This document shows positions 4,187 through 23,957 of a DNA stretch of 64,000 nucleotides, piece by piece. The notes beneath the pieces were generated by a model. It searched no databases. It worked only from the letters and a program-made list of their open reading frames with translations, and was not told the DNA's origin. The position numbers and the translations under genes are program-made. Each line of letters begins with the position of its first letter. The first letter of the stretch is position 1. The DNA is from an uncultured Planctomycetaceae bacterium (GTDB lineage Bacteria; Planctomycetota; Planctomycetia; Planctomycetales; Planctomycetaceae): NCBI GenBank assembly GCA_963815195.1, contig CAWFGE010000006.1:64001-128000 (forward strand). Direction: 5' to 3'.

Positions 4187-5405
4187 CTATTCCGATTTCG
4201 CAAGCCGGGGGGCTAAGACCTCTTTGGACAGGCGGATGATTTCGAGATGCTCCACGTCGCGGATCGCGGCGCCCAGATCGCTGGGGAGTTCGGCCGCCGG
4301 TTCCGCTCCTTTGGCTTTCAACCGAAAGTCCACGACAAACGCTCCCGCCTGGAGGCCGGGCGAGACGAACTCGGGCGGCCACAGGGCGCGGACGACCTTG
4401 CGGAAGTGCTGGGCCAAGAGAAACGTTCCCACCATCGAAAACCCGCCCATCACGACTTCCGCCACGCCCTCCGCCGGGCGGTAGCTGTAAAAAATCAACG
4501 CCGGCTCGCGATCACTGTTGGAAGGGATCATCTCCCAAGTGCCGGGTTCGCGTTCAAAGTAGATTCCCGGCTCCTCGGATGAGATGTGTTGGCCGCTGAG
4601 ATCCGCCGCCAGCACGCGGCCGCCGTGGCAGGAGGGCACGTTGACGTCGGTGTCGCGGTATCGATAAAAGAACGGGCACGCGCGGTCGCCGGGCTTCGAG
4701 ACGCGGTCCTGCGTGCCCCAAGGCGTTGCGGAAAACGCCCGCGCAATCGCCAACTCGCAAAGTCCGTTGCTTTTGACGGACCCCAAACACACGAGGGCCC
4801 GGCTGCCGGGGATGCCGTCGAACCGTTCATAAGCCGACGTCGCCTCCTCCTTCATTTGCTGGAACTCCGCATCGCGCTCGGCGGGTTTGGCTTCCTGTGA
4901 CCTCATGGAGCAGCTTCCGCACCATGTACTGGTCGAACCGCGGCGCGAGGTCGGCGGGAATCGGCTGCGGAACGAGCGGCGCATCTTGAAGCGGTTCGTC
5001 CGGGGCGAGCGAGCCCTGCTCGGTGCCGTAGAGTTCGTGCAAAAGCATGCCCTGCAAATACGAATCGGAGGCCGGGATCCACAGCAGCCCGGTGTCGTGC
5101 ATTTCGTGCCGAACCCCAAACGACATCACGAGCACCTGGCGTTCTGCGAGGAATGCCCAAAAATTTTCCGGTTCAAGCGAAAAGAGCCGGCCCGGTAAAT
5201 CGTAAGAAGAGAGGTGATGGGTATTGATCAAGTAGTCGCAAATCGCCCCCAGGCTGTTGAGCGAGAGATATTGCACTTCGTTTTTCAAAAGCGCCGAGAC
5301 CTGATGCCGCTCGAGTCCGGTTTCTTCCGAAATTTTTTTAATGGTGCCTCGTCCGGTGTCCCGGAGTTCGTTGAGGAGTTCCGCGAGTCGAAATCTAACT
5401 TGCAT
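4187..5405 (-). CDS. XRE/Cro-C1 HTH transcriptional regulator with large C-terminal domain (~405 aa); frameshift near 4915, probably an indel
   Basis: N-terminus MQVRFRLAELL..TIKKISEETGLERHQVSALLKNEVQYLSLNSLGAICDYL is a typical XRE HTH. ORFs 4827-5471 and 4187-5119 join if one base is removed at cggaagc. Confidence 0.7.
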
Positions 5406-5697
5406 AGGAAGCCTCTTATGGCGGTTTATTCTCCACAGAAACCTATGGCGGTTTGTTTTCCCAAAAGACACGGCTTTGGGCAGGAAGGACGCCGAAAGGA
5501 CGCACGAGTTGTCACTGTGTTCACTTTAGGATCCTTCATGGTTCATAAAAAAACAACAACGCAAGTATTTACTGAATAATATGTTAAGGCGTTAGACCCG
5601 AAGGTCTCCTGAAAGGCGCGATCCATGAGCCTTTCGTTTGTGTCAAAGTTTGCCGATTGATCCAAACAAGTCAACATTTCCGAATTGTAGATTTTTT

Positions 5698-5714: not shown

Positions 5715-5797
5715 TTTTCTTGATTCCCGATTTGGGCAAGTTACCATGATTCTCAATGTCATACCAACGGTCGCTCGCCGTTAAGGAGGTCAAGCTC

Positions 5798-6196
5798 ATG
5801 ACATCGAATCCCCCTCCCGTTGAACAGTGGGACCCTTTCTTTCGCGACGTGCAGCTCAAACTGGTCGACCGGCTGGGCCTTCAAAACGTCGTTATCTCGG
5901 TGGGGCGTCACAGAGGCTCCAACGGGAAAGTGGAGGTGAGCCTCTTCAACCAAGTTTCCTCCTCGGACGCGTCGGAGCGGGACCCCACGATCCAATGCCC
6001 CGCGGATCCAAAAATCGCCGCCAATGAACTCCCGAAGGAAATTCAAGCAATCTTAGACACGTTGCTGGCGGGTTGTTCGGTCAATTTCGGAGACATCTAC
6101 TTTTTTGTGAACCGAGGTTGGCTGCGGAAAACCATGTTTACCGTCTCCGCCCGGCCGGACGAATCCTCGTATCCTTTCTTCATTGTCAACATTTGA
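5798..6196 (+). CDS. Hypothetical protein (132 aa), first gene in the direction of the Ub-like cluster
   Basis: Strong RBS aaggaggt upstream of ATG 5798 (ORF open from 5756); C-terminal helix-beta-beta weakly reminiscent of DUF2292. Confidence 0.6.
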   Translation: MTSNPPPVEQWDPFFRDVQLKLVDRLGLQNVVISVGRHRGSNGKVEVSLFNQVSSSDASERDPTIQCPADPKIAANELPKEIQAILDTLLAGCSVNFGDIYFFVNRGWLRKTMFTVSARPDESSYPFFIVNI

Positions 6197-6432
6197 TTGG
6201 GAGATTGTTCCGGTCACTCGTCGTTTGGGCAGCTGCTCGCTGCAAACCGAGGTGACCGCCCGCTCTTTCTGATTCTGATCTTCCCCGGAAAGAGTTGCAA
6301 CAACTTTATCCTTGGATGACCCGCGTTTGCAAAACGAGGTCGGCCAATTGTTTCGCCCCATCCCCCGCGGAGGGTGGCGAAAGACTGGCCGGCCTCGTTT
6401 TTTTTGGCCTCTCGCCTAAAGGAATTTTTGAC

Positions 6433-7029
6433 ATGACTCTGCTCTCCCCGCATTCCAAGGCCTGGAGCCTGCGAAAAGAAAAAATCCTCCAGGTCCTCGG
6501 GGACTTCTCCCAGAAAAGTCCGGCGATGTCCTTGTTGAGTTTCGAAGACACCGGCGACGAGGTGCGGGGGATTGTCCAGTTCGAGACCGAGACCCTGGTG
6601 AAACTGCCGGGGCAAGACGTGCAACTGGCCGGTCCCGTGGTCGCCGGGATTCGCTATCACCACCTGTTCCAATCGCAGGCCCCCGTGCCCTGGGAACTCG
6701 TCACGATCCTGTTCCCGATGGCGGTGTATCACCCGAACGTGAATGCGGGCGGGGGGTTATGTCTCGGACATCCCGCGGCCAACGTGCCGATGGACTTGAT
6801 TCTCCACATGACCTGGGCGGCGCTGGTGCTCAACACCCGCCTGGTCACGACCACGGATTGGAACGTGTTCAACCGCGAGGCCGCCGCGTTCGTTCGCCAG
6901 CACAAGGGCCGGTTTCCGCTGACCGAACGGGGCCTGTTGGAAGCCGTTCCGCTTCCCGCCGCCGTCTCCCAAACCGCCGTTCAAAACCCGACCGCCCCGA
7001 CCCCGCCAAAGGAGGAAGCTCAATCATGA
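6433..7029 (+). CDS. Ubiquitin-conjugating enzyme E2 (UBC fold, canonical HPN...C active site)
   Basis: FPMAVYHPNVNAGGGLCLGH matches the UBC signature F-x-x-x-(I/V)YHPNV...G-x-(I/L)CL; downstream FNREAAAF matches the N-x-EAA helix. Confidence 0.85.
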   Translation: MTLLSPHSKAWSLRKEKILQVLGDFSQKSPAMSLLSFEDTGDEVRGIVQFETETLVKLPGQDVQLAGPVVAGIRYHHLFQSQAPVPWELVTILFPMAVYHPNVNAGGGLCLGHPAANVPMDLILHMTWAALVLNTRLVTTTDWNVFNREAAAFVRQHKGRFPLTERGLLEAVPLPAAVSQTAVQNPTAPTPPKEEAQS

Positions 7030-7907
7030 TTGCCGCCCAAAAGTCCGCCGTGCGCACCATACCCGATTGCCTGCTCAAATGCGGCTGGTCTCCGCGGGGC
7101 CGATTGCAGAATTCGTTCTGCCTGCAGACGCCCCAAGGCGAAGCCGTGCTCGAACGCCAGCCCGCGAATGCTCAAAGCGGGTGGACGGAATGGATTTTAG
7201 ATAGCCCGCATCTTCCAAAGCCGGAGCCGCAAGGCGTGTTCTCGGCCAATCGCCAGATCGAGGGGCCTTGGAAATTCGTGGTCACACCCGCGGGCGAGGT
7301 TATTTGCCGGGGCGATTTCCCACGGGAGGCGAACGTGACCGACGATGCGTTCGACCTGGCCGCGGGGCGAACCTGGTCGCCTTTGGAATTCTGGGCGGAG
7401 TCGGCGACGCACATCGCCCAAACCGGTTCGTCCTCTCTGGTCGATGCGCCCAAACCGCCGGCTCCGGCCTTGGTGCATTGGCTTAAGGAGCATGGCTTTG
7501 TGGCGTCGGCCGACGGCGAAGCGGTGAAGGTGACGGTTCCGCTCTCCGGCACGTTCCGCGAGGTCGCGGTCGATTGGGGCCAGGATGGAAACGTTCGGCT
7601 CCAAGCCGAGATCGGCCGGCTCGCGGGCTGGCCGGAATCTTCACGCGCCGCCGCGGAGGATTTTCTGGAGGAAGCCAATCGCCGGCTGCGGCTCGTCCGC
7701 GTGGCTCAGCCGGGCGAAGAGAAGGTGTATTGCCTGGAGGCGTGTTTTTGTGCGCCCGGTCCCGGTGTCTGGTTGCAGTCGGCCTTGGATGCCCTCTGCA
7801 CCGGCATGGCGCTCTTAGTTCAGCCGTTGGCCGCGCTCCGGGATCCCGGCGTGGCCGACATGCTCTTGGCCGGCAGTTCGGCCAAACGAAAAGGAGGTGT
7901 CGAATGA
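7026..7907 (+). CDS. Uncharacterised protein (293 aa), possibly with YbjN/T3SS-chaperone-like domain(s)
   Basis: ATGA overlaps with both neighbours (translational coupling); segments FLEEANRRLRLVRV...VYCLEACF and VFSANRQIEGPWKFVV...EVICRGDF resemble the YbjN fold pattern. Confidence 0.6.
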   Translation: MIAAQKSAVRTIPDCLLKCGWSPRGRLQNSFCLQTPQGEAVLERQPANAQSGWTEWILDSPHLPKPEPQGVFSANRQIEGPWKFVVTPAGEVICRGDFPREANVTDDAFDLAAGRTWSPLEFWAESATHIAQTGSSSLVDAPKPPAPALVHWLKEHGFVASADGEAVKVTVPLSGTFREVAVDWGQDGNVRLQAEIGRLAGWPESSRAAAEDFLEEANRRLRLVRVAQPGEEKVYCLEACFCAPGPGVWLQSALDALCTGMALLVQPLAALRDPGVADMLLAGSSAKRKGGVE

Positions 7908-8209
7908 CCGCAGTCTTGGACGCCCCCGTGATCCCGGATGAACTCACCATCGAAGTGAGCGATCCCACGGGGTTCCAGCACGTCACATTGGAAGGGGTCC
8001 GGGCCTCGGCCACCACCAGCGACATTGTCGCGATGGCAAAGGGTGCGCTGCGTTTGCCCCCGAACGTCCTGTGGGACCTTCGGGAAGAACGCAGCAGCCG
8101 CTTGCTGCCGCCCGATTCTCGTATCGGTGATGTGGCCGGGGAAGCAGCCCCGCACGTCAAGGTGACGATGCAGCCGGATGCCGGCCTCGCCGGCCATCGG
8201 GTTTGCTAA
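7904..8209 (+). CDS. Ubiquitin-like beta-grasp protein (YukD/EsaB-like), C-terminus ...QPDAGLAG-HRVC
   Basis: RBS aaggaggt, ATGA overlap; LTIEVSD-TG..VTL (b1-b2), TTSDIVAMAKGALRLP (helix), WDLR..RLLPPDSRIGDV..VKVTMQP ubiquitin-fold pattern; context next to E2 and JAB. Confidence 0.7.
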   Translation: MTAVLDAPVIPDELTIEVSDPTGFQHVTLEGVRASATTSDIVAMAKGALRLPPNVLWDLREERSSRLLPPDSRIGDVAGEAAPHVKVTMQPDAGLAGHRVC

Positions 8210-8388
8210 GGCCCGATCCGCACCCGCCGGCGATGGCGGGCGGGTGCGGGTTTTGATTTCTGCATTTTGTCGGGTCCGCTGTGCGGGCCACGGAATGACA
8301 ACAAAACACCCGAACCATCACAACGAATCTGGTCCGCACAGCGGACCCTACAAGACTGAATCACCCAAACGACAAGGAGCCGACGCCC

Positions 8389-9501
8389 ATGAAAACATCA
8401 ACTTCTCCGCTGGCCTTTGCCGATCCCGCAGCCGGTGCGAATGACGCAAAACGGTTTGGCTACCGCCTGGTGTTCCAGCGGGCGTCCGACGGCAAACGCC
8501 TGGATACAGGCTTCGCCGATCCGTTCTGGCTGGAGAGTCTCAAAGAGCAAGCGATTTTCCAGGCCCAGCGCCGGGGCCTTGTCGCTGCCGATCCCGCGCA
8601 GGCCGTCGTCTCGGAGCATCCGCTATTCGCGGAAAATACCGACGGCCGGCTCAAGGGATTCGCGATGGCCGCGGGCGAAGGGGAATCCTCGCATTGGACG
8701 CATTTTGAATTGGCGTCCGCCTTCTCCGCCCCGGCGGAAACGGCCCTCCAAAAACTTCTGGAAAGCAAACAACTCGGCACCGACGACAAAGTCACGTTCC
8801 AAATCTTCGCCGAGCCGGCGTCCGAAACCCAGGAAGATGCACCGCAAAACCCCGGCGTGCGGGCGACGGTCCAGCGCAATCCGCTGCCGCTCCTCGCAGG
8901 CCGGCTCTCCGATTTTCTCCCCGATGCCAAACCCAGCGGCGAGATGCAGGAGAAGGACCATCACCTGTTTCTGCCGCGAAAGCTGTTCGAGCAGGCGCGG
9001 GACTATTGCTTCAAAACCGGCAAACAGGAAGGCGGGGCGATGATCGTGGCCCGGATGTATCGCCAGACCGAACCGGAGCCGGACCTCTTCGTCGTGGCAC
9101 ACGCGGTCGTGGAGCTTCGCCATGCCAAGCAGTCGCAGTTCGGGTTCGAGCCGACGTCGGAAACCTTCGCGGACCTGGGAACCCAGCTCAATCTCCGGCG
9201 GACGCGGCTGGGTTTTCCAGAAGAGGTGCCCGCGGTTTTGGTGCATAACCATCCGTTCGAGCCGTCGGTCCGCGACGACGGCGAAGCCAACTGCCCGGCC
9301 TGCCCGCTGCAGCAGGAGTGCCAACTGACCTCGAGCTTTTATAGCGCCAGCGATGTGAATTTCCACCTCAGCATGTACGGCAGCCAGCCGTTCGTGGCGG
9401 GGATTGTGATCGGTCTCACGCCCCGCCGGGAAGACGACGTCCGCATGTTCATTTTGGACGGCACCAAAACCCGCGAACGCGGCTTTCATTGGATCGAATA
9501 G
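8389..9501 (+). CDS. JAB/MPN+ metallopeptidase (putative deconjugase) with N-terminal extension and Cys-rich insert
   Basis: RBS aaggag; E in KQEGGAM, HNHP, FYSASD = E...HxH...SxxD JAMM motif; insert CPACPLQQEC between HxH and SxxD. Confidence 0.8.
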   Translation: MKTSTSPLAFADPAAGANDAKRFGYRLVFQRASDGKRLDTGFADPFWLESLKEQAIFQAQRRGLVAADPAQAVVSEHPLFAENTDGRLKGFAMAAGEGESSHWTHFELASAFSAPAETALQKLLESKQLGTDDKVTFQIFAEPASETQEDAPQNPGVRATVQRNPLPLLAGRLSDFLPDAKPSGEMQEKDHHLFLPRKLFEQARDYCFKTGKQEGGAMIVARMYRQTEPEPDLFVVAHAVVELRHAKQSQFGFEPTSETFADLGTQLNLRRTRLGFPEEVPAVLVHNHPFEPSVRDDGEANCPACPLQQECQLTSSFYSASDVNFHLSMYGSQPFVAGIVIGLTPRREDDVRMFILDGTKTRERGFHWIE

Positions 9502-9530
9502 CCCCGTCACAAAAACCTCTCGTCTTCTTA

Positions 9531-9639
9531 AGCCGCGCACGAAGTCAGCGGTTTTCACTTTGGTTTTTCTTGAGCCGCGCACGAAGTCAGCGGTTTTCAA
9601 GTTATCAGAAACTTAGATCCGCTTACTTCGTGCGCGGCT
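9531..9639. repeat. REP-like cluster: 27-bp direct repeat plus inverted copy
   Basis: agccgcgcacgaagtcagcggttttca at 9531 and 9573; ccgcttacttcgtgcgcggct at 9619-9639. Confidence 0.8.
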
Positions 9640-9690
9640 CAGTGGTTTTTTGGAAATTGAATCTTCATCCCCAATTGGAAGGAACGATTT

Positions 9691-11400
9691 ATGTCGCTCA
9701 AACCTCCCCAGAATCCCGTTGACTTCCACAAAGCCATCGAAATCTGCCGGCAGTTGAATCTGCCCCCCAAGGCCCGGGCGGAGACGCTCATCTATTTAGT
9801 GATGGAGCAGGGGCTGGATTTGGCGCCGGCCCTTGCGGAGATTCTCAATGAGGCCGACGAAGGCCGGGTCAAAAAGGCCGAGGAAGACGAGGAACACACC
9901 CCTCTGTTGCCGGTGCGGTTCATCGCGCATGTGAAAGTGGGCGGCAAAGCGTACGCGGTCGTGACCGGTCCGCAGGGCACGACTTATCTGCCTTGCTCCG
10001 ATCAGGAGATCAAGGGGCTCGAGTTCGGGGATTCGGTGCTCGTCGATTCCAAGAAAGGCCGCGTGGTCGGCCGCGACGGCGCGGTCCCCCCGGCCGGGGA
10101 AGTCGTGCCGGTGGACAGCTTGTCCGCCGACGATGCCGGGCAGGTCGTGGTCAAAGTCCAGGAGCAGGAAGTCATGGCCCGCGTGCCGCTCAAACTCCGC
10201 CGGGAATCGCCGATCCAGCCGGGACAGCGGGTGATCTTCGACGCGGCGACGCGGTTCATCGACCAGGTCGTCCACAGCGGTTCCGACGGCGAGGAGTTGT
10301 TGACCGATCTGGATTCGCTGGATTCGGTCTCCCGCGCCGATTTGGGCGCGCCGCATCCGGTGCTGGACGACATGCTGTTCCGCATCCGCCAGGACGTTTT
10401 GTATCCCGAATGGGCCCGGCAAATGGGGGCCCGGCTTTCGGCGAGCTACCTGCTCTCCGGCCCGACCGGCACCGGCAAAACGATGCACCTCAAAGTCCTG
10501 GCCCGCGAAGTGGCCGACTTCCTCGAAGACCTCACCGGCGAACGCACCAGTCCGCTGATCACCGTCGATGCCAATTCCTTCTATTCGCCCTGGTTCGGCT
10601 CGACGGAAAGCAAGATTCATTCCTTCTTCGAGCGGCTCCACAAATTGGGGGCCAAACAGATGACGACCAAGGACGGCGTCATCGCGACGCGGCCGCTGAT
10701 CGTTACGCTCGAAGAATGCGAAGCCCTCCTGCGGTCGCGCGGCGAAATGGGAGGCAGCGGGCATTTGTTCGATCGGCCTCTGTCGCTGATCCTGCAGAAA
10801 ATCAGTTCGCTGGGGAACGATCTCCACATGCCGGTGTATTTCGTCGCCACCACCAATCGGCCCGACTTGTTGGATGCGGCGGCCCGGCGGCGGATCGGGA
10901 TTCGGCACGTCGTGTTGGGCACATTGACTGCCGCCCAAGCCGCGAGCGTCCTGGAAACCAAACTCGGGCCTTCGATGAAGTACCGCGGGGCGGAGGCTGC
11001 GGATCAATCCCGGCAGCAACTCGTCCAGCAGGTGCTGAATTTCCTGTTCGCGGGGGATGATGCGGCGCAGGGGATTGCGGAGGTGCGGTTCCTCGACAAC
11101 AACCGCCGCACGCTCTGCCGCCGGCATCTCGTGACCGGGGCGATGCTGGAAGAAGCCGTGAGCGCCGCCACGGACGACTGCCTCAAAGAAAGTGCCGAGG
11201 CGGGCGAACTCGTGGGCATCGATGCCCAGGGGGTGATTCGCTCGCTGGAGTCGCAATTCCGCAGCCTGGCGGGAACGCTGCGAGCCCACAACCTGCCCGA
11301 ATATTGCCCGCAATGGTTCGCGGACGAGCCGTTGCGCGTGGAGCACGTCCGCCCGCTCGCCGGCCGCACCCGCCGCCCGGCCTCGTGGGCGGTCAATTAA
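9691..11400 (+). CDS. ARC/Mpa-like (proteasomal-type) AAA+ ATPase
   Basis: Short N-terminal helical region, two OB-like segments (LEFGDSVLVD; IQPGQRVIFD), Walker A GPTGTGKT, pore loop SPWFGSTESKI, Walker B variant IVTLEECE, ATTNRPDLLDAAARRR, and ARC-like AEVRFLDNNRRTL..HLVTGAMLEEAV. Confidence 0.8.
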   Translation: MSLKPPQNPVDFHKAIEICRQLNLPPKARAETLIYLVMEQGLDLAPALAEILNEADEGRVKKAEEDEEHTPLLPVRFIAHVKVGGKAYAVVTGPQGTTYLPCSDQEIKGLEFGDSVLVDSKKGRVVGRDGAVPPAGEVVPVDSLSADDAGQVVVKVQEQEVMARVPLKLRRESPIQPGQRVIFDAATRFIDQVVHSGSDGEELLTDLDSLDSVSRADLGAPHPVLDDMLFRIRQDVLYPEWARQMGARLSASYLLSGPTGTGKTMHLKVLAREVADFLEDLTGERTSPLITVDANSFYSPWFGSTESKIHSFFERLHKLGAKQMTTKDGVIATRPLIVTLEECEALLRSRGEMGGSGHLFDRPLSLILQKISSLGNDLHMPVYFVATTNRPDLLDAAARRRIGIRHVVLGTLTAAQAASVLETKLGPSMKYRGAEAADQSRQQLVQQVLNFLFAGDDAAQGIAEVRFLDNNRRTLCRRHLVTGAMLEEAVSAATDDCLKESAEAGELVGIDAQGVIRSLESQFRSLAGTLRAHNLPEYCPQWFADEPLRVEHVRPLAGRTRRPASWAVN

Positions 11401-11403
11401 CCC

Positions 11404-11552
11404 GGCGAGCGGGGGGCGTCAGCCCCCTGGTTACGTCGAGAGTTGAAACCGCGAAGAACCCAAAGAGACACAAACAGAACCAAAACCGAAAAGCGACAAT
11501 GTGAACCAACCGGTAGCCAATACAACCAGGGGGCTGACGCCCCCCGCTCGCC
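11404..11552. repeat. REP-like element, perfect 29-bp inverted repeat
   Basis: ggcgagcggggggcgtcagccccctggtt (11404-11432) / aaccagggggctgacgccccccgctcgcc (11524-11552); related arms at 20216-20244, ~43416, ~51017, ~59940. Confidence 0.85.
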
Positions 11553-11583
11553 TGAAACATTTTTTTCAACAAGGAGAACTCTC

Positions 11584-11898
11584 ATGAACTTTCGATTGCT
11601 CAAGAAGAAACTCGATTCCGAAATCCAACCGCAACAGCCCCTCGGCGGCGGAGGCGATCCTTCCGGCGGCGATGGCTGTCCGCAGGGCAGCGTGTTCTGC
11701 CGGCATGGGATTCATTCCGGCTGGTTTCCCATCGCGGGGATGCGGCTGGGCGACGCCCGGCCGATTCTCAATCAGTTGCTCAACATCGACCCCGAAGCCG
11801 TCGCCGTGATCAACGGCCAGATTGTCAACGACGATTTCATCATCGGCGAGGATGTCGAGCTTTTGAACTTCGTCAAGAAATCTTCAATCAAAGGCTGA
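11584..11898 (+). CDS. Ubiquitin-like/ThiS-MoaD-type beta-grasp protein 1 (C-terminal Gly, ...KKSSIKG)
   Basis: RBS aaggag; GMRLGDAR..LNIDPEAVAVINGQIVNDDFIIGEDVELLNFVK..G pattern; Gly/Pro-rich N-terminal tail. Confidence 0.8.
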   Translation: MNFRLLKKKLDSEIQPQQPLGGGGDPSGGDGCPQGSVFCRHGIHSGWFPIAGMRLGDARPILNQLLNIDPEAVAVINGQIVNDDFIIGEDVELLNFVKKSSIKG

Positions 11899-11901
11899 CC
11901 G

Positions 11902-12201
11902 ATGACGCGTCCTTCAAACCAACATCCCAAACCCGCAAAAGCCGTCCTCGAAAACGAGGCCGCTCGCGAAGGCCCCGAAGAATCGCCCCAGGGCATCTTT
12001 TGCCGTCACGGGATTTTTTCGGGCCGGTTTCCCATTGCGGGCCTGCGGCTCGGCGAGGTTCGGCCGGTGCTCAGCCGGTTGCTTAACATCGATCCCGAAG
12101 CCGCGGCGGTGGTGGATGGGCGGTTGGTGGGAGACGACTTTCTCATCGGTGACGACGTGGAACTTTTGAATTTCATCAAACCTTCTGGAATCATGGGGTG
12201 A
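11902..12201 (+). CDS. Ubiquitin-like beta-grasp protein 2 (tandem paralogue, ...KPSGIMG)
   Basis: 47/67 identical residues to 11584-11898 over the core (counted by hand); unrelated N-terminal tail. Confidence 0.8.
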   Translation: MTRPSNQHPKPAKAVLENEAAREGPEESPQGIFCRHGIFSGRFPIAGLRLGEVRPVLSRLLNIDPEAAAVVDGRLVGDDFLIGDDVELLNFIKPSGIMG

Positions 12202-13025
12202 CGTTTATGACTGCATCGACGCTCGAGGAGATCCTCCTCAACGACAAAGAATACGAAGTTCGCGGCGGGGACGGCGAACCGTTCCGGGGCCAACTCGGCG
12301 ACCTCATCGACGCGGTGCGGAAAAACGCCATCGTCGGATTCGAGGAAAACCCGCTACCCAAGAACAACCTGGCGTGGAAAATCGAAGCGGGGCCGCTCAC
12401 GGTGTGCATTGTGGAATTGGAGCCGGCCTTTCGCGTGCTCCAGTGGATTCACCCGGAAAGCGCGATGCCTTACGGTCCCGAGGCGATTTACACGCCCCGC
12501 AGCCTGGCCACGCCTTACGTGGTGCTCAAGGTGTCTTTCGTGGCGGGACACATCACCTCGCGGGCGGAACTGTTTTACCGCAACCGCCGGCTGGCGAATT
12601 TGAATGATGAACTCTACTGGCCGAACCTGCTCAACGTCAGCCCCCACGCCTACGGCTGCCGGGCCTGGATCTGCACGCAGTATCTGCGGACCGAGCATTT
12701 TCAGCCGGGCGTCACCCAGGGGCTCGATGCGCTGCTCCATCATCTGTGGGGCGGCGGATTCAACCGCTCCAGCGAACGTCACGAAGGCAACTCGGCCTTC
12801 AGCAAGGCGGCCAAGGACAAGATCGATTCCCGCGTGACCGACGTGGGCCGCTGGGAGCAGGAATCGATCAAGAACCCCCGCTTCGTGTTGGATGTGAAAT
12901 GGAAACCGGTGGGCGTCACCGTGCGGCAGTTGATTCAGGATGAGCTGGATCACCACAAACCCGTCCGCGACCTGAGCCGCACGGGGGAACTCGTCAACCT
13001 GCTCTCCATGACCCGCCGGTCGTGA
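12198..13025 (+). CDS. Prokaryotic E2-like protein (Prok-E2 family D / PRTRC protein B-like)
   Basis: GTGA overlap with the Ubl stop; SLATPYVVL, ELYWPNLLNVS...WICTQ (candidate catalytic Cys), LWGGGFN; flanked by Ubl, JAB and ThiF. Confidence 0.65.
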   Translation: MTFMTASTLEEILLNDKEYEVRGGDGEPFRGQLGDLIDAVRKNAIVGFEENPLPKNNLAWKIEAGPLTVCIVELEPAFRVLQWIHPESAMPYGPEAIYTPRSLATPYVVLKVSFVAGHITSRAELFYRNRRLANLNDELYWPNLLNVSPHAYGCRAWICTQYLRTEHFQPGVTQGLDALLHHLWGGGFNRSSERHEGNSAFSKAAKDKIDSRVTDVGRWEQESIKNPRFVLDVKWKPVGVTVRQLIQDELDHHKPVRDLSRTGELVNLLSMTRRS

Positions 13026-13083
13026 ATGACCAAAGAATGATCGCAACTCTGTTTTCAAGCGGACGGGGTCCCACGCCCCTGAT

Positions 13084-13144
13084 CGCAGCGAAGGGCGTGG
13101 CGATCGCAAAGACCACGCCCTTCGTTCCTCAGGGCGTGCCACCC
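13084..13144 (+). repeat. Dispersed palindromic repeat; inverted copy at 59835-59895
   Basis: cgcagcgaagggcgtggcga...gaccacgcccttcgttcctcagggcgtgccaccc, near-identical reverse complement at 59835-59895. Confidence 0.8.
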
Positions 13145-13202
13145 GTGTCACTCAAGTCTCTAGCCACTTTTGTGAAACACAACTCGCAAAGGACCAACTG
13201 CC

Positions 13203-14078
13203 ATGAACTTTGAGATTCTCATCAAAACGCTCCACACCGAGCTGCCCGAACTCAAGCCGGGGCAGTTTCGGTATGTGCTCGGGCGGGACGGTTTGCACGT
13301 GGAACGGGCCACGCCGATGTATACGAGCAGCGTGAAAGTCGACGGCCCGGTTCCGTTTCTCGCGGAGCATCCCCAGCAATGCCGGCTCAATTGCGGGCCG
13401 ATTCCCTCGAACATGCTCCGGCAGATGGTGGGCTTTTTCCAGGCGGCCTACCACATGCACGGCGGCGAAGCGGCCCTCGTTCTGTTGTACTTTCCCGCAA
13501 CCGGAAAGTTCGCCTGGCATTGCCCGAAGCAGACGATTCGGATGTATTCGTCGTGGGGCAAGTTCCGCGCGGACGATTCGGTGGAATACGACAACCCGCT
13601 GTCGCTGCCGGCGGGCGCGGTGCAATTCGGCGATGCCCATTCCCACATCGGCCCACCGATCCCTTCGATCATGGATCAAAACGATGAAGCCCATTTGGAT
13701 GGCCTGCATATCATCGTGGGAAACATCTCCAGCCGGTTTCCACGATGGCACATTGATTTTTGCATCGACGGCCACCGCTTCTCGGTGCCGACCGACATGA
13801 TTCTCGAAGCCGTCCCCGAAGCCCCATTTCCGGAACCGCCGGTCGGATGGACGCAGCAAATCCAGTTGGTTTATCCCTCGTGGAAAACCGAATCCTACTC
13901 GGCTTCCAAGCCGCGAACGTCCACGTGGAGCAGTTCAAGCCACTCCCGCTTCGGCTCCTCCAAGAACCAGAACGGTTCCGGCAGCCGGGACTCTGTGGAA
14001 GAGAACGACGAGTCGCCTCCGTCTGCATCCGAGAAACCCGCCGCCGAATCCCAACCCAGCGACGAGGATGAATCATGA
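13203..14078 (+). CDS. Prok-JAB metallopeptidase (PRTRC protein A-like)
   Basis: YVLGRDG N-terminus, GPIP..LRQMVGFF, GEAALVLLY, DAHSH..PSIMDQNDE..DGLHIIVGNI; Ser-rich/acidic disordered tail. Confidence 0.85.
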   Translation: MNFEILIKTLHTELPELKPGQFRYVLGRDGLHVERATPMYTSSVKVDGPVPFLAEHPQQCRLNCGPIPSNMLRQMVGFFQAAYHMHGGEAALVLLYFPATGKFAWHCPKQTIRMYSSWGKFRADDSVEYDNPLSLPAGAVQFGDAHSHIGPPIPSIMDQNDEAHLDGLHIIVGNISSRFPRWHIDFCIDGHRFSVPTDMILEAVPEAPFPEPPVGWTQQIQLVYPSWKTESYSASKPRTSTWSSSSHSRFGSSKNQNGSGSRDSVEENDESPPSASEKPAAESQPSDEDES

Positions 14079-14896
14079 TGAATCCCGACACCGAAAAACC
14101 AACGACCGCCGCGGAGAAAATCGCCCGGCAACTGGAAACCCGCTGGCTCGCCGAGGGCCGGATTGTGGTCATCGGCCTGGGCGGAATCGGGTCGATTCTC
14201 GCCCGGTATCTGGTGCTGTTTCTGGCGAGCCTGCCGGACGAGTTTCGCGTGCTGCTTGCCGACGGCGACAGTTTTGAACCGGACAACACCTACCGCATGG
14301 ATGTGCCCGGCTATCAGAACAAGGCCGTGGCGATGGACATGGAACTCAGCGAGCGGTTCGGCCGCGAGGGTTTGGTGATCCGCTCGAAAGCGAAATATCT
14401 CAGCCCCGGCAACACGGACGACCTGATCCGCGAGGGCGACTTCGTGCTGCTCTGCGTCGACAACCATGCCACCCGCAAACTCGCCAGCGACCGGTTAAGC
14501 GAACTCGATAACGGGGCGATCGTCTCCGCGGGCAACGACGGCGTCGGCGACGGCGAGCGGGGCACTTATGGGAACCTGCAGATCTACGCCCGGCAAAACG
14601 GGGAAACCATCGCCGGCGGGCCCTTCGATATGTTTCATCCCGAAATCGCCGAGCCGGAGGATGTCTTCCCCGACGAAATGGACTGCATGGAACTGGCCGC
14701 ACAAGGGGCGCCGCAACTTTTGCCGATGAACCTGGCGATGGCCTCGGCGATGCTCTCGGCGGTGCTCCGGTTTCTGATGCCTCCGCCAGACGAATCGATG
14801 TACGACGAGGTGTGCCTCGATATTTTGGAAGCCACGGCCGTTCCGCAATGGCTGACCCGGCCGCAAAAACGCCCGAAGCCTTCGACCCCCGTTTGA
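14075..14896 (+). CDS. ThiF/E1-like activating enzyme (PRTRC ThiF-like)
   Basis: ATGA overlap; IGLGGIGS, DGDSFEPDNTYR, NKA, CVDNHATR, candidate catalytic Cys in MDCMELAAQGAPQLLPMN. Confidence 0.9.
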   Translation: MMNPDTEKPTTAAEKIARQLETRWLAEGRIVVIGLGGIGSILARYLVLFLASLPDEFRVLLADGDSFEPDNTYRMDVPGYQNKAVAMDMELSERFGREGLVIRSKAKYLSPGNTDDLIREGDFVLLCVDNHATRKLASDRLSELDNGAIVSAGNDGVGDGERGTYGNLQIYARQNGETIAGGPFDMFHPEIAEPEDVFPDEMDCMELAAQGAPQLLPMNLAMASAMLSAVLRFLMPPPDESMYDEVCLDILEATAVPQWLTRPQKRPKPSTPV

Positions 14897-14921
14897 CCAA
14901 CCGAAGAGAGAGGAGCCTTTA

Positions 14922-15548
14922 ATGAAAACGTTCTGCCTGCATCCCATCCGCCGGGCGGTGCTCGATTCCGATCCGCCGCTGTTGTGCATTTCGTCCGCCG
15001 ATTGCCGGGAGGCCCCGCGGATGGTCTGGATCACCAAACGGGGCCGCTTGCGGAGTTCCCCTGCTCAACAAGTCCACGAAACCGCCCGGCGGATGGCGCG
15101 CCTCTTGTACCGCGATGCGGGCCACGGCAATTCGCAATGGCTCTTTGCGCCGCTGTGTGACGAAGTGCTGCACAATGGCATCCGGCCGCTGGCGATCGCG
15201 ATCATCGAACCGGGCGACGTGCTCGCCCTCGGCGAAGAATGCTGGTTCGCGTCGGAACTCTGGCGGCCGGCCCCGGTCCCGGCTCCGGAAAACATCGCCG
15301 AGAAGGAATGCTCCGTCTGCGGCGGCCCGCTCAAATTGGCCCCGGTCATCCAATGCCCCTGCGGGCGGTATTATCACCTCGAGCATCCCGAAACCCCGGA
15401 CGATCCGCAGGCGTTGAATTGCTACCTGACGGCCGGCATGTGCGGATTGTGCGAACGCAAGCCGAGCCTCGAACCGCAGTTTCTCCCAACGCCGCCGGAA
15501 GAATTGATCCCGGAAGACCACCTCGCCGCCGCGCTTGCCGCGGTGTGA
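14922..15548 (+). CDS. FHA-like + C4HC3 zinc finger (Prok-RING/PHD-like) protein, candidate E3
   Basis: RBS aggag; VLHNGIRPLAIAIIEPGDVLALG resembles the FHA C-terminal strands; CSVC-x11-CPC-x4-H-x14-C-x6-CGLC gives eight Zn ligands. Confidence 0.65.
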   Translation: MKTFCLHPIRRAVLDSDPPLLCISSADCREAPRMVWITKRGRLRSSPAQQVHETARRMARLLYRDAGHGNSQWLFAPLCDEVLHNGIRPLAIAIIEPGDVLALGEECWFASELWRPAPVPAPENIAEKECSVCGGPLKLAPVIQCPCGRYYHLEHPETPDDPQALNCYLTAGMCGLCERKPSLEPQFLPTPPEELIPEDHLAAALAAV

Positions 15549-15711
15549 ATGCGTTTCGCGATTGGAAAGGATTGAACCACCGATAAACGAATAAGACGAA
15601 TAAAGACCCACATGGCTTTTATCCGCGCGCCTCCGCGTTCTCCGCGGTCCATATCTTTGGCTTTGTTTGATTCGTCGCTCAACGCGGCTTGATCTTGTGA
15701 GAGGTATTGTC

Positions 15712-16875
15712 ATGGCTCAAGAGGTTTTATCCGAACACGATTTGGCTTCGTGTTGGCCGGCGATTCCCAGTGTGGACTGGCGGCTCCTCGGACAAACGCG
15801 ATTTGTGTTCGTGGGCGCGGGGGCGGTGAATCGGCCGCTGGCATTCCAGTTGGCGTGGTTGGGGATGAAGGGGTGCATCGTCATCGATCCCAAACCGTAC
15901 AAATCCCAAAGCGTCATTTCGCAATGCAAACCTTGCGAAGTCGGGCGGTTTAAAGCCGAAGTTGTCGCGGAGGAGCTTCAGAAGCGGGGCGTCGCGGCGA
16001 CGCCCTTCGTGAAAGACGTGGACGTGGTGCCGCCCGGCTATTTGGAAGGGGACAGCCTCGTCATCGTGGCGGTGGACAATCGCCGGGCCGACATTTGTGC
16101 GAACCGCTTCGCCGCCCGCATGCGCCGGCCGCTGGTGAAAGTCAACGTGGATCCCAATTACCTCACCGCGTCCATTCGCTGTTACGACCTGCGAAACGGT
16201 CCCCTCGCTCTGTGCGCGGAATGCCAAATGACGGATCGGCATTACGAAGAGCAACGGCACCCCTTAAGCTGCGACGGCGGCGAAGTGGGAGAACAAGCCA
16301 CAGGCAGCCCGCGGCCGCTCAGCCAGTTCGCCGCGAATGCCGCGGCTTTGGCCGTCGCCCAAATCGCCGGTTCGCCCGACGAATGGGCCAAGACCTGGTG
16401 GGGAAAGCAATGGCAGCAAAACCTGTTGGGCGGCCGGGGCTTTTTTTCGGATCTCGAACCCAACCCCCATTGCCGCTGGGATCACGCCGCGGCTTGGGAT
16501 CCGCTGATCTTCCTGCCGCACGATCAGCCCATCAGCCTCTCGCATCTGGCCAAGGGAACATTCGGCTCAATGCCGACTTGGGAAGTCGAGTTTTCCGCGC
16601 GGGTCGCGACGCGGATGGTCTGTTCCCAATGCCGAGCCTCCGAGGAAGGCGTGTGGTGGGTCGCGGAACTCGACCGGCCGGTGACGCGTTGCGGTTGCGG
16701 CGGCGAGAGTTTTGCGCTGCCGTTCTTCACCCACAAAAAACTCCCGGCCGCGGAGCTCGAATCCGTTTGGAACCGGCCGCTCGCCGCGTGGGGCGTGACG
16801 CCGGGTTCTGTTCTCCGCTTCGCCTCGGCTTCCAAGAACCAAATGTACTGTTTGCGCGTTCCAAGATTGCCTTAG
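15712..16875 (+). CDS. E1/ThiF-family enzyme with C-terminal Zn ribbon and ubiquitin-fold-like domain
   Basis: RBS gaggt; FVGAGAV, EVGRFKAEV, AVDNRRA, CAEC, PLSC (candidate catalytic Cys), CSQC...CGC, RPLAAWGVTPGSVLRF. Confidence 0.8.
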   Translation: MAQEVLSEHDLASCWPAIPSVDWRLLGQTRFVFVGAGAVNRPLAFQLAWLGMKGCIVIDPKPYKSQSVISQCKPCEVGRFKAEVVAEELQKRGVAATPFVKDVDVVPPGYLEGDSLVIVAVDNRRADICANRFAARMRRPLVKVNVDPNYLTASIRCYDLRNGPLALCAECQMTDRHYEEQRHPLSCDGGEVGEQATGSPRPLSQFAANAAALAVAQIAGSPDEWAKTWWGKQWQQNLLGGRGFFSDLEPNPHCRWDHAAAWDPLIFLPHDQPISLSHLAKGTFGSMPTWEVEFSARVATRMVCSQCRASEEGVWWVAELDRPVTRCGCGGESFALPFFTHKKLPAAELESVWNRPLAAWGVTPGSVLRFASASKNQMYCLRVPRLP

Positions 16876-22066: not shown

Positions 22067-23531
22067 ATGTTAGTCATTCGTGGTGGCGTTGGACGGGACA
22101 CGTGCGATGGGATTTCCCGCCGGAATTTGCTGCGGGTGGGTGGCTCGGCGATTGCCGGGCTGAGCCTGGCGAATTTGATCGAAGCCGACCGCGCAGGCGG
22201 ACGAATCCGAAGGTCGTTACGGCGGTCCCGGCTTCGGCAAAGCCAAGAGCGTGATTCTGCTCTATCTCCAAGGGGGTCCAAGCCATTTGGACTTGTGGGA
22301 TCCCAAGGAAAACGTGCCGGATAACGTGAAGAGTGTTTTCAAGAACGTCTCCACCAAACTGCCGGGCGTGCAGTTCACCGAAAACCTGCCCAAGTTGGCC
22401 CAGGTCAACGACAAATGCACGATGATCCGCTCGATGAGCTACACGCCGATCGGGTTGTTCAATCACACGGCCGCGATTTATCAGATGCTCACGGGCTACA
22501 CCGCCGACAAGGTCAGCCCCTCCGGACAGTTGGAACCGCCCAGCCCGAAGGACTTTCCGAACTTCGGCTGCAATATCATCAAGCTCAAGCCGCCCACCGC
22601 TCCGATGCTGCCTTACGTGATGATGCCCCGGCCGCTCCAGGAAAGCAGTGTGATCGGCAAGGCGGGCACGGCCGGCTTTTTGGGCCGGGCTTACGATCCG
22701 TATTATCTCTACCCTCCGGGCGATGATATGGACATGAAGAAGATGGAGAAGATCAACGTGGACGACCTCACGCTGCGTCCCGAGATTTCGCTGTCGCGGC
22801 TCGAACGCCGGGCTCGATTGCGGGATCAGATCAACTCCAGCCTGCACGAGTTGGAGCAAGCCGTCTCTAAATACGACCTGAATGAATATTACGACAAAGC
22901 CTTGGGGCTGGTGCTGTCCGGCAAGGCCCGCGAAGCCTTCAACCTGGGGGCCGAGTCGAAAGAGCTTCGCGAGAAATACGGCAACAACACCTTCGGGCAA
23001 AGCTGCCTGTTGGCCCGGCGATTGATCGAAGCCGGGACCCGCGTGGTCGAAGTCAACTGGCCGAAGGTCGCCAACTCGGACAACCATTCCTGGGATGTGC
23101 ACTCCGGTTTGACGAAGCGGATGAAGGACCAGTCCGCCCCGATGCTCGATGCCGCTCTGTCGGCTCTGCTCGCGGACATGGATGAACGCGGGATGCTCGA
23201 AGACACGCTGGTGGTCGCGGTCGGCGAATTCGGCCGCAGCCCGAAGCGCGGCGTGAGCACCTCCGGCAACAGCAACAGCGACGATGGCCGCGATCACTGG
23301 CCTTACTGCTACACGTCCGTCGTCGCCGGCGCCGGCGTCAAACGCGGCTTCGTGCACGGCAAGTCCGACAAGACCGCCTCGGCTCCCATCGAGAACCCGG
23401 TGCATCCCAACGACCTGCTCGCGACGATCTACCACAGCGTCGGCCTCAACCCCCGCCGCACGATCTACAACCATCTCAACCAACCCCGCGAAATGGTCAA
23501 AGCCGACGCGATTACGGACATTCTCTCCTGA
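22067..23531 (+). CDS. DUF1501 domain protein (Tat-like signal); frameshift near 22187, probably an indel
   Basis: [57 protein letters not shown]. Confidence 0.88.
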
Positions 23532-23565
23532 CGCGGACCGGCTCCCAAAGCGTCGATTATCACTC

Positions 23566-23721
23566 AAACTGTAAGCGTGCGGGTGGCTGGGGCGCAAATC
23601 CCCTTTGAATAAGGCTTAAATTGCGAATGCTGGGGCTGTCACCGGGCGAGAAACACCTGACACGGCCCCAGATCTCCAATCTCCTTTTTCCTCGGAACAC
23701 TCCTTTGCGCCCAGCCACCCC
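23566..23721 (-). mobile_element. ~155-bp dispersed MITE/REPIN-like element, copy 2
   Basis: Diverged reverse complement of 2230-2386; inverted ends gggtggctggggcgcaaa / tttgcgcccagccaccc. Confidence 0.65.
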
Positions 23722-23957
23722 CTCCACTTTCGACTTGCAGTTTGAGGATGATAACAAATCCCTTCTCCCTTCGGGCGCGCCGTTCCGGGTGGCCAAAGAC
23801 CGGATAGGGTGCGCTCCGCGCCCGGCCCATTATCCCATCCGTAACTCCATCCGCCCGCGTGCATGTTTCGGACGCGGCGGTTAGAATGAAGGTGTGATAA
23901 CTTCCCGCCTGAATCTTCACGCCTTCAACCTCGCGGTTTGCTCATCGGAATGACCTC

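Follow-up and report, generated by a model that had tools for sequence, protein, structure and literature searches.

Why does a planctomycete keep two sets of genes for ubiquitin-like conjugation in a single gene cluster, with an AAA+ ATPase between them? The question is raised by 13 genes in a 64,000-nucleotide (nt) stretch of DNA, referred to below as the window (positions 64,001 to 128,000 of contig CAWFGE010000006.1, GenBank assembly GCA_963815195.1), from an uncultured Planctomycetaceae bacterium. The assembly of this member of the Planctomycetota comprises 8.9 Mb and is 94.6% complete. The combination of ubiquitin with a proteasomal ATPase is viewed as a hallmark of eukaryotes and archaea, and bacteria are thought to pair the unrelated tag Pup with the ATPase Mpa. 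On balance, and by no means firmly, we favor the explanation that these genes are a single conserved operon with an Mpa-type ATPase at its center. The inner set of conjugation genes would be the module that attaches and removes the tag of this ATPase, and the outer set is likely an optional second layer.

All 13 genes are located on the forward strand (+) and together span positions 5756-16875. They are arranged in the order g01, E2out, g03 (YbjN-like), UblOut, JABout, AAA+ ATPase, Ubl1, Ubl2, E2in, JABin, ThiFin, RING, and E1out, where Ubl stands for ubiquitin-like protein. Ubl1, Ubl2, E2in, JABin, and ThiFin (11584-14896) constitute the inner set, and E2out, g03, UblOut, JABout, RING, and E1out the outer set. 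The ATPase (9691-11400) and the YbjN-like gene (7026-7907), which an earlier note on this DNA did not mention, belong to the same cluster. Four pairs of neighboring genes overlap by 4 nt (E2out/g03, g03/UblOut, Ubl2/E2in, and JABin/ThiFin). Ubl1 and Ubl2 are separated by 3 nt, ThiFin and RING by 25 nt, and the remaining gaps measure 163-236 nt. The G+C content at third codon positions (GC3) is 0.65-0.81 across all the cluster genes, and there is no step in G+C content over the cluster. Because of the overlapping starts and stops, the 25-nt gap between ThiFin and RING, and the uniform GC3, the cluster bears no sign of a recent insertion. A recent insertion of the inner set was considered and rejected, since the composition and GC3 are uniform and the pairing of the two sets is ancient.

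The two sets were compared by aligning their family profiles with hhalign. Between the inner and outer proteins, the E2s have a probability of relatedness of 0.1%, the Ubls of 1.6%, and the JABs of 0.7%. ThiFin and E1out align with a probability of 97.6% and 16% identity, which indicates kinship at the superfamily level only. The comparisons support the view that the inner and outer genes are two separate sets of modifier, E1, E2, and JAB, which belong to unrelated families and are not duplicates of each other. Both modifier families keep a C-terminal glycine, and catalytic residues are conserved in every enzyme. The earlier note had proposed two cascades with a modifier each, and the lack of likeness between the E2, Ubl, and JAB profiles agrees with this. 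The note had also described the inner genes as one family set, and all of the genes and motifs that it named are present.

The conservation of the arrangement was followed in two samples. A scan of metagenomes with the E2in alignment identified 215 relatives, and 80 loci anchored on E2in were kept (individual loci, here and in the genomes, are labeled L with a number). The second sample consisted of 400 other Planctomycetota genomes (labeled G with a number). Of the 32 loci with at least 2 kb of sequence before the inner set, 31 have an AAA match there (the exception is L047), as have all 22 loci with at least 3.5 kb. Where the sequence reaches, E2in is followed downstream by JABin (44 of 44 loci) and by ThiFin (31 of 31). 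The outer set, represented by E1out, E2out, and JABout, is found in 11 of the 14 loci in which 6 kb or more of sequence precede the ATPase. Full-length members of the ATPase family (E ≤ 1e-116) are encoded in ten of the 400 genomes, and there is one additional copy cut by the end of a contig. As far as has been seen, both sets always adjoin the same kind of ATPase, which is the hub of the system. The guess of the earlier note that the two cascades may share the ATPase fits these gene neighborhoods.

The ATPase is Mpa/ARC-like. It matches the NCBIfam family pup_AAA (TIGR03689) with an E-value of 1.1e-26, and the alignment spans positions 20-481 of the 512 positions of the model, nearly its full length. 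Mpa chains from the PDB align to residues 110-527 of the ATPase. The gene is present in a single copy in the genome. The protein ends with the sequence ..PASWAVN, and lacks the C-terminal motif by which Mpa docks to the 20S proteasome. No 20S proteasome was detected in the 94.6%-complete genome, in which the sole match to PF00227 is HslV (5.9e-75). Each of five relatives that bear the system has zero or one match to PF00227. Nine loci (L011:8074-9327, L066, L067, L070, L075, L076, L081, L099, and L111) carry an extra gene encoding about 410 residues in a gap of approximately 1.4 kb between the ATPase and the inner Ubl, which is absent from the window. In the product of the extra gene, the N-terminal domain is conserved and the C-terminal half is AAA-like but degenerate, with AAA_lid_2 (0.0076) as its only match.

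The two sets also occur apart from each other, as revealed by the co-occurrence analysis that the earlier note had proposed. E2in is encoded in four of the 400 sampled genomes and an E2out-like protein in 12, and neither was found in 20 genomes from the same family. Four layouts can be distinguished. The outer set, the ATPase, and the inner set are combined in G390, G101, G094, and G400 and in the long metagenome loci. L079/L088, L093, and L074 contain the ATPase and the inner set but lack the outer set, and for L079, L093, and L074 this lack was also established with profile hidden Markov models; L079, L080, and L088 seem to represent a single sequence that was sampled three times. Seven Planctomycetota genomes (G053, G083, G133, G063, G088, G192, and G055) have the outer set but not the inner set, and in them the ATPase is accompanied by a Pup set. 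Finally, G092 contains the ATPase with the Pup set only.

The position of the Pup genes provides the key to the function that we propose for the inner set. In the genomes with only the outer set, the ATPase is followed, at the position of the inner set, by two tandem genes encoding about 560 residues each, in the arrangement Dop/PafA-Pup-PafA. In L026, both of the genes that follow the ATPase match Pfam Pup_ligase (1.6e-97 and 2.2e-74). A small open reading frame (ORF) ending in GGQ, GGE, SGE, or PGE is present beside the Pup-ligase genes in all eight loci. The sister operons L025, L026, L027, L028, L034, L151, and L154, which are located in the genomes G053, G083, G133, G063, G088, G192, and G055, have the order RING-E1-E2-x-Ubl-JAB-AAA, followed by the two Pup-ligase genes and the small ORF. 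They thus join a ubiquitin-like cascade to a pupylation locus, with no proteasome genes nearby. The inner set and the Dop/PafA-Pup-PafA genes are alternatives at one position, and the outer set can accompany either of them.

Because the Pup genes hold the same slot in the sister loci, the inner set can be read as a ubiquitin-fold replacement of pupylation, and is likely a stand-in for Pup. In the proposed mechanism, ThiFin would adenylate the C-terminal glycine of the inner Ubl and pass the Ubl to Cys159 of E2in, which would attach it to lysines of target proteins. The disordered N-terminal tail of the Ubl may serve as the thread that enters the pore of the hexameric ATPase, as the tail of Pup does for Mpa. 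JABin would trim the inner tag and remove it, the role that Dop has for Pup. In the outer set, JABout may cut four extra residues from UblOut before attachment, E1out, E2out, and RING would attach UblOut, and the YbjN-like protein is a possible adaptor. The outer cascade would then provide a second, E3-selected input to the same ATPase. With no 20S proteasome encoded in the genome, the substrates would be unfolded, extracted, or handed over to another protease, and not degraded by a proteasome. More broadly, and only tentatively, it can be proposed that a tag-and-unfold pathway based on the ubiquitin fold, and interchangeable with pupylation, operates in bacteria of the PVC group. In such a pathway, a beta-grasp Ubl with a disordered leader, attached by E1 and E2 and removed by a JAB peptidase, would have taken over the job of Pup as the handle of a proteasome-less Mpa-type unfoldase, and the cascade with the RING E3 would be its second input.

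The comparison with the Pup-Mpa system of Actinobacteria, as it is presented by Iyer, Burroughs and Aravind in 2008 (PMC2588565), reveals three similarities: the ATPase has an Mpa-like span, the genes for the tag and for its attachment and removal are located directly downstream, and the N-terminus of the tag is disordered. The same source reports Rhodopirellula to be without 20S genes, and the genome studied here resembles this proteasome-less planctomycete form. In contrast to Pup, which is disordered and ends in GGQ/E, the inner tag adopts a beta-grasp fold and has a terminal glycine. Attachment is predicted to proceed through E1/E2 thioesters instead of a glutamine-synthetase-like ligase, and removal would be performed by a JAB protease instead of Dop.

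Several observations weigh against the explanation by a replaced Pup. The ATPase scores 93.7 bits, whereas the curated cut-off for Mpa is 504.75. The fold of E2in is assigned from weak structural matches (Z ≤ 4.7; Foldseek E ≥ 0.15) together with a motif pattern. Occupation of the same genomic slot does not prove the same function. The sparse spread of the system, with E2in in four and E2out in 12 of 400 genomes, also fits a defense system or a selfish element. The ATPase tree separates the inner-set loci into two groups, and one group clusters with the Pup-linked ATPases (97/97); because the tree is unrooted, it does not give the direction and number of the swaps between Pup and Ubl. Finally, a PafA-like gene is retained elsewhere in the genome, on contig C1, and therefore Pup-type chemistry has not been wholly replaced. 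This gene is the only match of the genome to the Pup-ligase family. It is located at L120:8204-9974 on the reverse strand (-) and is split into adjacent ORFs of 286 and 302 amino acids, the first of which contains a hydrophobic stretch. No ATPase adjoins the pair.

The same co-occurrence data bear on an alternative, which we consider unlikely, in which two orthogonal cascades act in sequence and the ATPase is only a downstream effector. One cascade could activate the other in the manner of NEDD8 and cullin-RING, or the two could place a first and a second mark on the same targets. The origin of the two sets from unrelated families and their co-occurrence in 11 of 14 long loci are consistent with a sequence of this kind, and the RING E3, which belongs to the outer set only, is a possible regulatory target. 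However, each set is found with the ATPase in loci that lack the other, and therefore neither is strictly dependent on its counterpart. The outer set pairs equally with the Pup module, in seven genomes, and parallel inputs therefore fit better than a dedicated relay.

A role in anti-phage defense or another conflict, of the kind known from Bil, Bub, and CBASS, is distinctly unlikely in our estimation. The Ubls would be placed on proteins of the invader, and the ATPase would dismantle the modified proteins or trigger arrest. Such a role would agree with the sporadic distribution (E2in in 4/400 genomes, E2out in 12/400, and 0/20 in the same family). Uncharacterized bacterial operons with E1, E2, RING, and deubiquitinase genes have been predicted to be defense systems (PMC10557695, PMC3417536), and the ATPase weakly matches the PADLOC models of TRIP13 and IetA. 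On the other hand, the PADLOC defense models match no component besides the ATPase and the E1s. PADLOC produced no system-level match, and besides the ATPase it found only generic E1-E2 domain matches for both E1s. The protease BubE/DUF6527 was not found in the scan of the window proteins, the flanking genes are ordinary planctomycete genes and do not resemble a defense island, and the sister loci are pupylation loci, which belong to a housekeeping or stress pathway.

The resemblance to the Bil and Bub operons, as described in PMC11601596, PMC11601603, and PMC10557695, lies in the presence of E1, E2, Ubl, and peptidase in one operon and in the variable copy number of the Ubl. An apparent Ubl-E2 reading frame in L093 resembles the Ubl-E2 fusions of Bub. 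In that locus (L093:9548-10675) the inner Ubl and E2in apparently form one frame of 375 amino acids. The E2 cysteine is conserved in the system studied here, whereas serine and tyrosine are reported for Bub, and no match to DUF6527 was found here. The system also differs in having a RING E3 and an Mpa-like ATPase, and no defense phenotype is known for it.

The components of the inner set are mostly without annotated families. Pfam and NCBIfam scans covered 16 proteins of the window. The window's own copies of E2in, Ubl1, Ubl2, UblOut, JABout, RING, and g01 had no match in these scans at E ≤ 0.01, and when Pfam was searched at E up to 10 the same proteins gave sub-threshold hints only (UQ_con 0.068, Prok-JAB 0.14, DUF2016 0.19, and Prok-RING_1 0.12).

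Ubl1 (11584-11898) is a beta-grasp protein, and Ubl2 (11902-12201) is its tandem paralog with 52% sequence identity. In both proteins, glycine directly precedes the stop codon (..SSIKG* in Ubl1 and ..SGIMG* in Ubl2), and the corresponding residue G104 of Ubl1 is invariant in 21 relatives. The model of Ubl1, calculated by AlphaFold2 (AF2) from an alignment of these relatives, is a confident beta-grasp fold in residues 36-104. It is preceded by an N-terminal tail of about 35 residues with low confidence, and the predicted local distance difference test (pLDDT) score of residues 1-30 is below 50. Each of the top 50 Foldseek rows for Ubl1 is either a ubiquitin-like protein or TtuB, a sulfur carrier, with probabilities of 0.98-1.00. 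None of the matches reached E ≤ 0.001. Two tandem inner Ubls are also present in L001, L092, and L108, and a single copy at the other loci. Many relatives of the inner Ubl have C-terminal extensions.

E2in (12198-13025) is a predicted E2-like cysteine enzyme from a family without a curated model. It contains the motif LYWPNLLNV...WIC. Residues W157, C159, and N146 do not vary among 46 relatives, and H195 hardly varies. The AF2 model of E2in has a pLDDT of 89.8. No Foldseek match to the model was found at E ≤ 0.001. The best had an E-value of 0.15, and several E2 chains were among the low rows. In the VIA wide search, the best Z-score was 4.7, a level common by chance, and at least 12 of the 50 rows were E2 or UEV-type chains. 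Together with the motif pattern, these weak matches make an E2 fold likely for E2in. None of the 46 relatives matched any Pfam Prok-E2 or PRTRC_B model, and the profiles of E2in, the inner Ubl, and g03 had no usable match among solved structures. The E2in family comprises at least 842 protein clusters, all of which are unnamed and without Pfam domains.

JABin (13203-14078) is a JAB peptidase with an additional N-terminal domain. It carries the sequence YVLGRDG...HSH and the full E..HxH..S..D motif of JAMM proteases, and residues E89, H146, H148, S155, D158, and D161 are invariant in 38 relatives. Its profile matches the MPN protein 2kcq from the PDB (4e-3). ThiFin (14075-14896) is a short E1-like adenylating enzyme of 273 amino acids, which matches Pfam ThiF with an E-value of 2.5e-12. 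Residues D63-G64-D65, R74, K83, and D129 are invariant in its 35 relatives, as is one cysteine, C204.

It is highly improbable that the ThiS- and ThiF-like genes are sulfur-carrier machinery for the synthesis of a cofactor or thionucleoside. In favor of this reading, the ThiFin relatives have their best NCBIfam matches among the ThiF/MoeB models, and the fold search with Ubl1 also retrieved TtuB. Nevertheless, an E2-like cysteine protein and a JAB peptidase are constant companions of these genes (44/44 and 31/31 loci), neither a rhodanese domain nor an enzyme of biosynthesis was detected among the cluster proteins in the Pfam and NCBIfam scans, and many of the Ubl relatives have C-terminal extensions that require trimming.

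The earlier note had called the inner set PRTRC-like, a term that applies to the JAB only. PRTRC_A (TIGR03735) is the sole NCBIfam family matched by the JABin relatives (38/38, best 1e-12), all of which score below the cut-off. JABin itself aligns to positions 20-188 of the 192 positions of the model with 22.9 bits, against a cut-off of 101.8. ThiFin scores 19.6 bits with the PRTRC ThiF model (TIGR03736), for which the cut-off is 144.75, and general ThiF/MoeB models match it equally or better. At E ≤ 1, the PRTRC models were matched by none of the 46 E2in relatives (protein B) and none of the 21 inner Ubl relatives (protein C), which also contradicts the term for the E2 and the Ubl. PRTRC proteins D, E, and F have no match in the cluster. 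As the earlier note had remarked, there is no ParB gene, which a comparison with the PRTRC families (TIGR03734-TIGR03742) calls for: none was found among the 16 scanned window proteins or on the contig, and the six ParB_N matches of the genome are all on other contigs. As judged from these profile matches, the kinship of the inner set with PRTRC is only distant and runs through the JAB, and the set is not a PRTRC member. That the inner set is a true PRTRC cassette of a mobile element, which landed in a Ubl operon by chance and keeps its own role in a plasmid or integrative and conjugative element, is barely credible, because the matches of the JABin relatives to PRTRC_A alone (38/38) and of the ThiFin relatives to PRTRC_ThiF (30/35) are opposed by the missing ParB in the window and on the contig, the lack of matches to PRTRC B, C, D, E, and F, scores far below all the PRTRC cut-offs, the tie to the ATPase in 31 of 32 loci, and the uniform composition.

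Like the PRTRC cassette, operon type 6d of Iyer et al. 2006 resembles the inner set in outline. In PMC1779556, the type is described as consisting of a Ubl ending in glycine, an E2-like protein with a conserved cysteine and a downstream histidine instead of the usual upstream histidine, a JAB with the N-terminal domain JAB-N, and a ThiF-like E1. The inner set shares the Ubl ending in glycine (G104, invariant in 21 relatives), C159 and H195 of E2in, the JAB with an N-terminal domain, and the ThiF-like E1. In contrast to the strictly conserved arginine and tryptophan that this source gives for JAB-N, no arginine or tryptophan is invariant or nearly invariant before E89 in the 38 JABin relatives. 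The extra helical "enzyme-like" protein with conserved polar residues, which the source also describes, is not in the inner set. The inner set differs from both PRTRC and type 6d in that it is always beside the AAA+ ATPase, and there is no ParB.

In the outer set, E2out (6433-7029, with the ORF open from 6295) is a canonical UBC-type E2 with an HPN motif and a catalytic cysteine. Cys110 is invariant in 21 relatives, and H-P/A-N is present in 17 of the 21, as counted from the alignment. All 35 rows matched by its profile in the PDB are UBC E2s (best 2.8e-4). The product of g03 (7026-7907) is similar to YbjN and to chaperones of type III secretion systems and is likely an adaptor. It matches Pfam YbjN with an E-value of 9.5e-5 and 23.1 bits (cut-off 22), and the Atlas leads to YbjN/TY-Chap1 clusters with a score of 0.87. 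In 11 further loci the interval between E2out and UblOut holds a gene at the place of g03.

UblOut (7904-8209) is a ubiquitin-like modifier, whose profile matches ubiquitin-like proteins including that of Caldiarchaeum (3e-4 to 4e-3). The window copy has four residues (HRVC) beyond the conserved C-terminal glycine. Among 19 relatives, counted from the alignment, 11 end at Gly or Gly-Gly and eight have a short extension. Pfam YukD matches five of the 19 weakly (best 1.3e-4) and Pfam ubiquitin three, and the window copy matches neither. The earlier note had considered the outer genes to be another family set, and the HPN E2, the Ubl, the JAB with a cysteine insert, the RING protein, and the long E1 are all present. 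However, its description of the Ubl as YukD-like is only partly borne out, because the YukD matches are weak, occur in five of 19 relatives, and do not include the window copy.

JABout (8389-9501) is a JAMM metalloprotease with a conserved motif, a cysteine-rich insert, and a long N-terminal region. Among its 19 relatives, residues E214, H286, H288, S319, and D322 are invariant, and C302 and C311 of the insert nearly invariant. The RING-type E3 candidate (14922-15548) has eight conserved cysteine or histidine residues: C130, C133, C145, C147, H152, C167, and C174 are invariant in 20 relatives, and C177 nearly so. Its profile matches the RING-H2 fingers of EL5 (1.1e-4) and RNF24 (1.8e-4) with the zinc ligands aligned. 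The spacing between ligands five and six departs from the classical pattern. The N-terminal half of the protein (14922-15300) contains a conserved "VNG..P" block, and an Atlas lead connects it to clusters with FHA domains (0.87). This is a hint that the RING E3 candidate may carry an FHA-like domain that reads phosphothreonine. E1out (15712-16875, with the ORF open from 15667) is a long E1 of 387-402 amino acids, which matches Pfam ThiF with an E-value of 3.9e-6. Its adenylation motifs, the zinc-type motifs CxxC..C..H and CxxC..CxC, Cys187, and a C-terminal domain are conserved. In E1s of the Caldiarchaeum type, a C-terminal ubiquitin-fold domain presents the E2; the C-terminal domain of E1out was recognized as a conserved region that bears the CxxC..CxC motif.

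Prokaryotic operons that combine E1, E2, RING, Ubl, and JAB genes were reportedly described by Burroughs, Iyer and Aravind in 2011 (Mol Biosyst), and the outer set fits this type. It is also similar to the Caldiarchaeum-type operon, known from the reconstituted operon of Caldiarchaeum subterraneum (PMC5654768, PMC4197634), in combining a UBC E2 with HPN and cysteine, a RING protein, a long E1, a Ubl ending in glycine, and a JAMM protease of the Rpn11 kind. Related operons are reported from Planctomycetes, Actinobacteria, and Acidobacteria in PMC4197634, and bacterial operons containing RING are referred to as rare and uncharacterized in PMC10557695. The outer set differs from the Caldiarchaeum-type operon in its linkage to an Mpa-like ATPase and, beyond this, to a Pup module or to another conjugation set of unrelated origin. 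Further differences are the cysteine insert and long N-terminal region of JABout and the YbjN-like gene between E2 and Ubl. The literature searches identified no paper on an operon in which E1, E2, and RING genes are combined with an Mpa-like ATPase and, in addition, with Pup or another Ubl set, and the publication by Burroughs and colleagues may already show the composite.

The nested architecture, in which the inner set lies within the outer one, is present in the window, as the earlier note had stated, but it does not characterize the system, in which the genes usually follow each other as RING-E1-E2-x-Ubl-JAB-AAA-Ubl-E2-JAB-ThiF. The two sets are arranged in tandem, as [RING]-E1out-E2out-gap-UblOut-JABout-AAA-Ubl-E2in-JABin-ThiFin, in 13 long metagenome loci. 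The order in G390 is RING-E1out-E2out-g03-UblOut-AAA-Ubl-E2in-JABin-ThiFin, and JABout was not found there. Apart from the window, its order is seen only in L001, a metagenome-assembled genome (MAG) with an ATPase 77% identical to that of the window, and in L038, where ThiFin, RING, and E1out follow each other as in the window and E2in is 63% identical. In the unrooted ATPase tree, the window joins L036 and then G390 (support 100/99). As judged from the gene orders, the nested order is a lineage-specific move of RING and E1out to the 3' end of the operon. The grouping of the window with L036 and G390, together with the order in G390, indicates that the move probably occurred within a small lineage. 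The idea of the earlier note that two cascades were merged at this locus does not hold as a local event, because the pairing is old and widespread (215 metagenome relatives and at least 842 protein clusters). Two irregularities were observed in other loci. The order of the inner genes is permuted to Ubl-JAB-ThiF-E2 in L074. In L001, JABout (8686-9784), the ATPase (10001-11702), and ThiFin (14274-15088) each match in two pieces in different frames, which is due to either frameshifts or errors of the MAG assembly.

The cluster is preceded by g01 (5756-6196), which encodes 146 amino acids and has no Pfam or NCBIfam family match. Its counterpart occurs at the same place only in L001 (40% identical). 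A divergent gene upstream (4827-5471, -) encodes a helix-turn-helix (HTH) protein of the Cro/C1 type (Pfam HTH_26, 2.2e-7), a possible regulator. In the clustering of neighboring genes, it was not seen beside the system at other loci. The genes downstream of the cluster at 22251-26348 of the window are unrelated to it. From the reading of their translations, they are DUF1501-like and planctomycete cytochrome-C/DUF1553-like genes, which are typical planctomycete pairs.

If the broader proposal of a tag-and-unfold pathway interchangeable with pupylation is true, the system would be the closest bacterial analog yet of the axis of ubiquitin and proteasomal ATPase. The families of the inner set that lack annotation, such as that of E2in, offer material for structural and biochemical work. 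The system would also open the questions of how unfoldases came to read Ubl tags, whether tag systems can be exchanged as modules, and what an Mpa-type motor does without a proteasome. The loci of these planctomycetes would represent an experiment of nature, in which a ubiquitin-like tag and Pup have been exchanged for each other.

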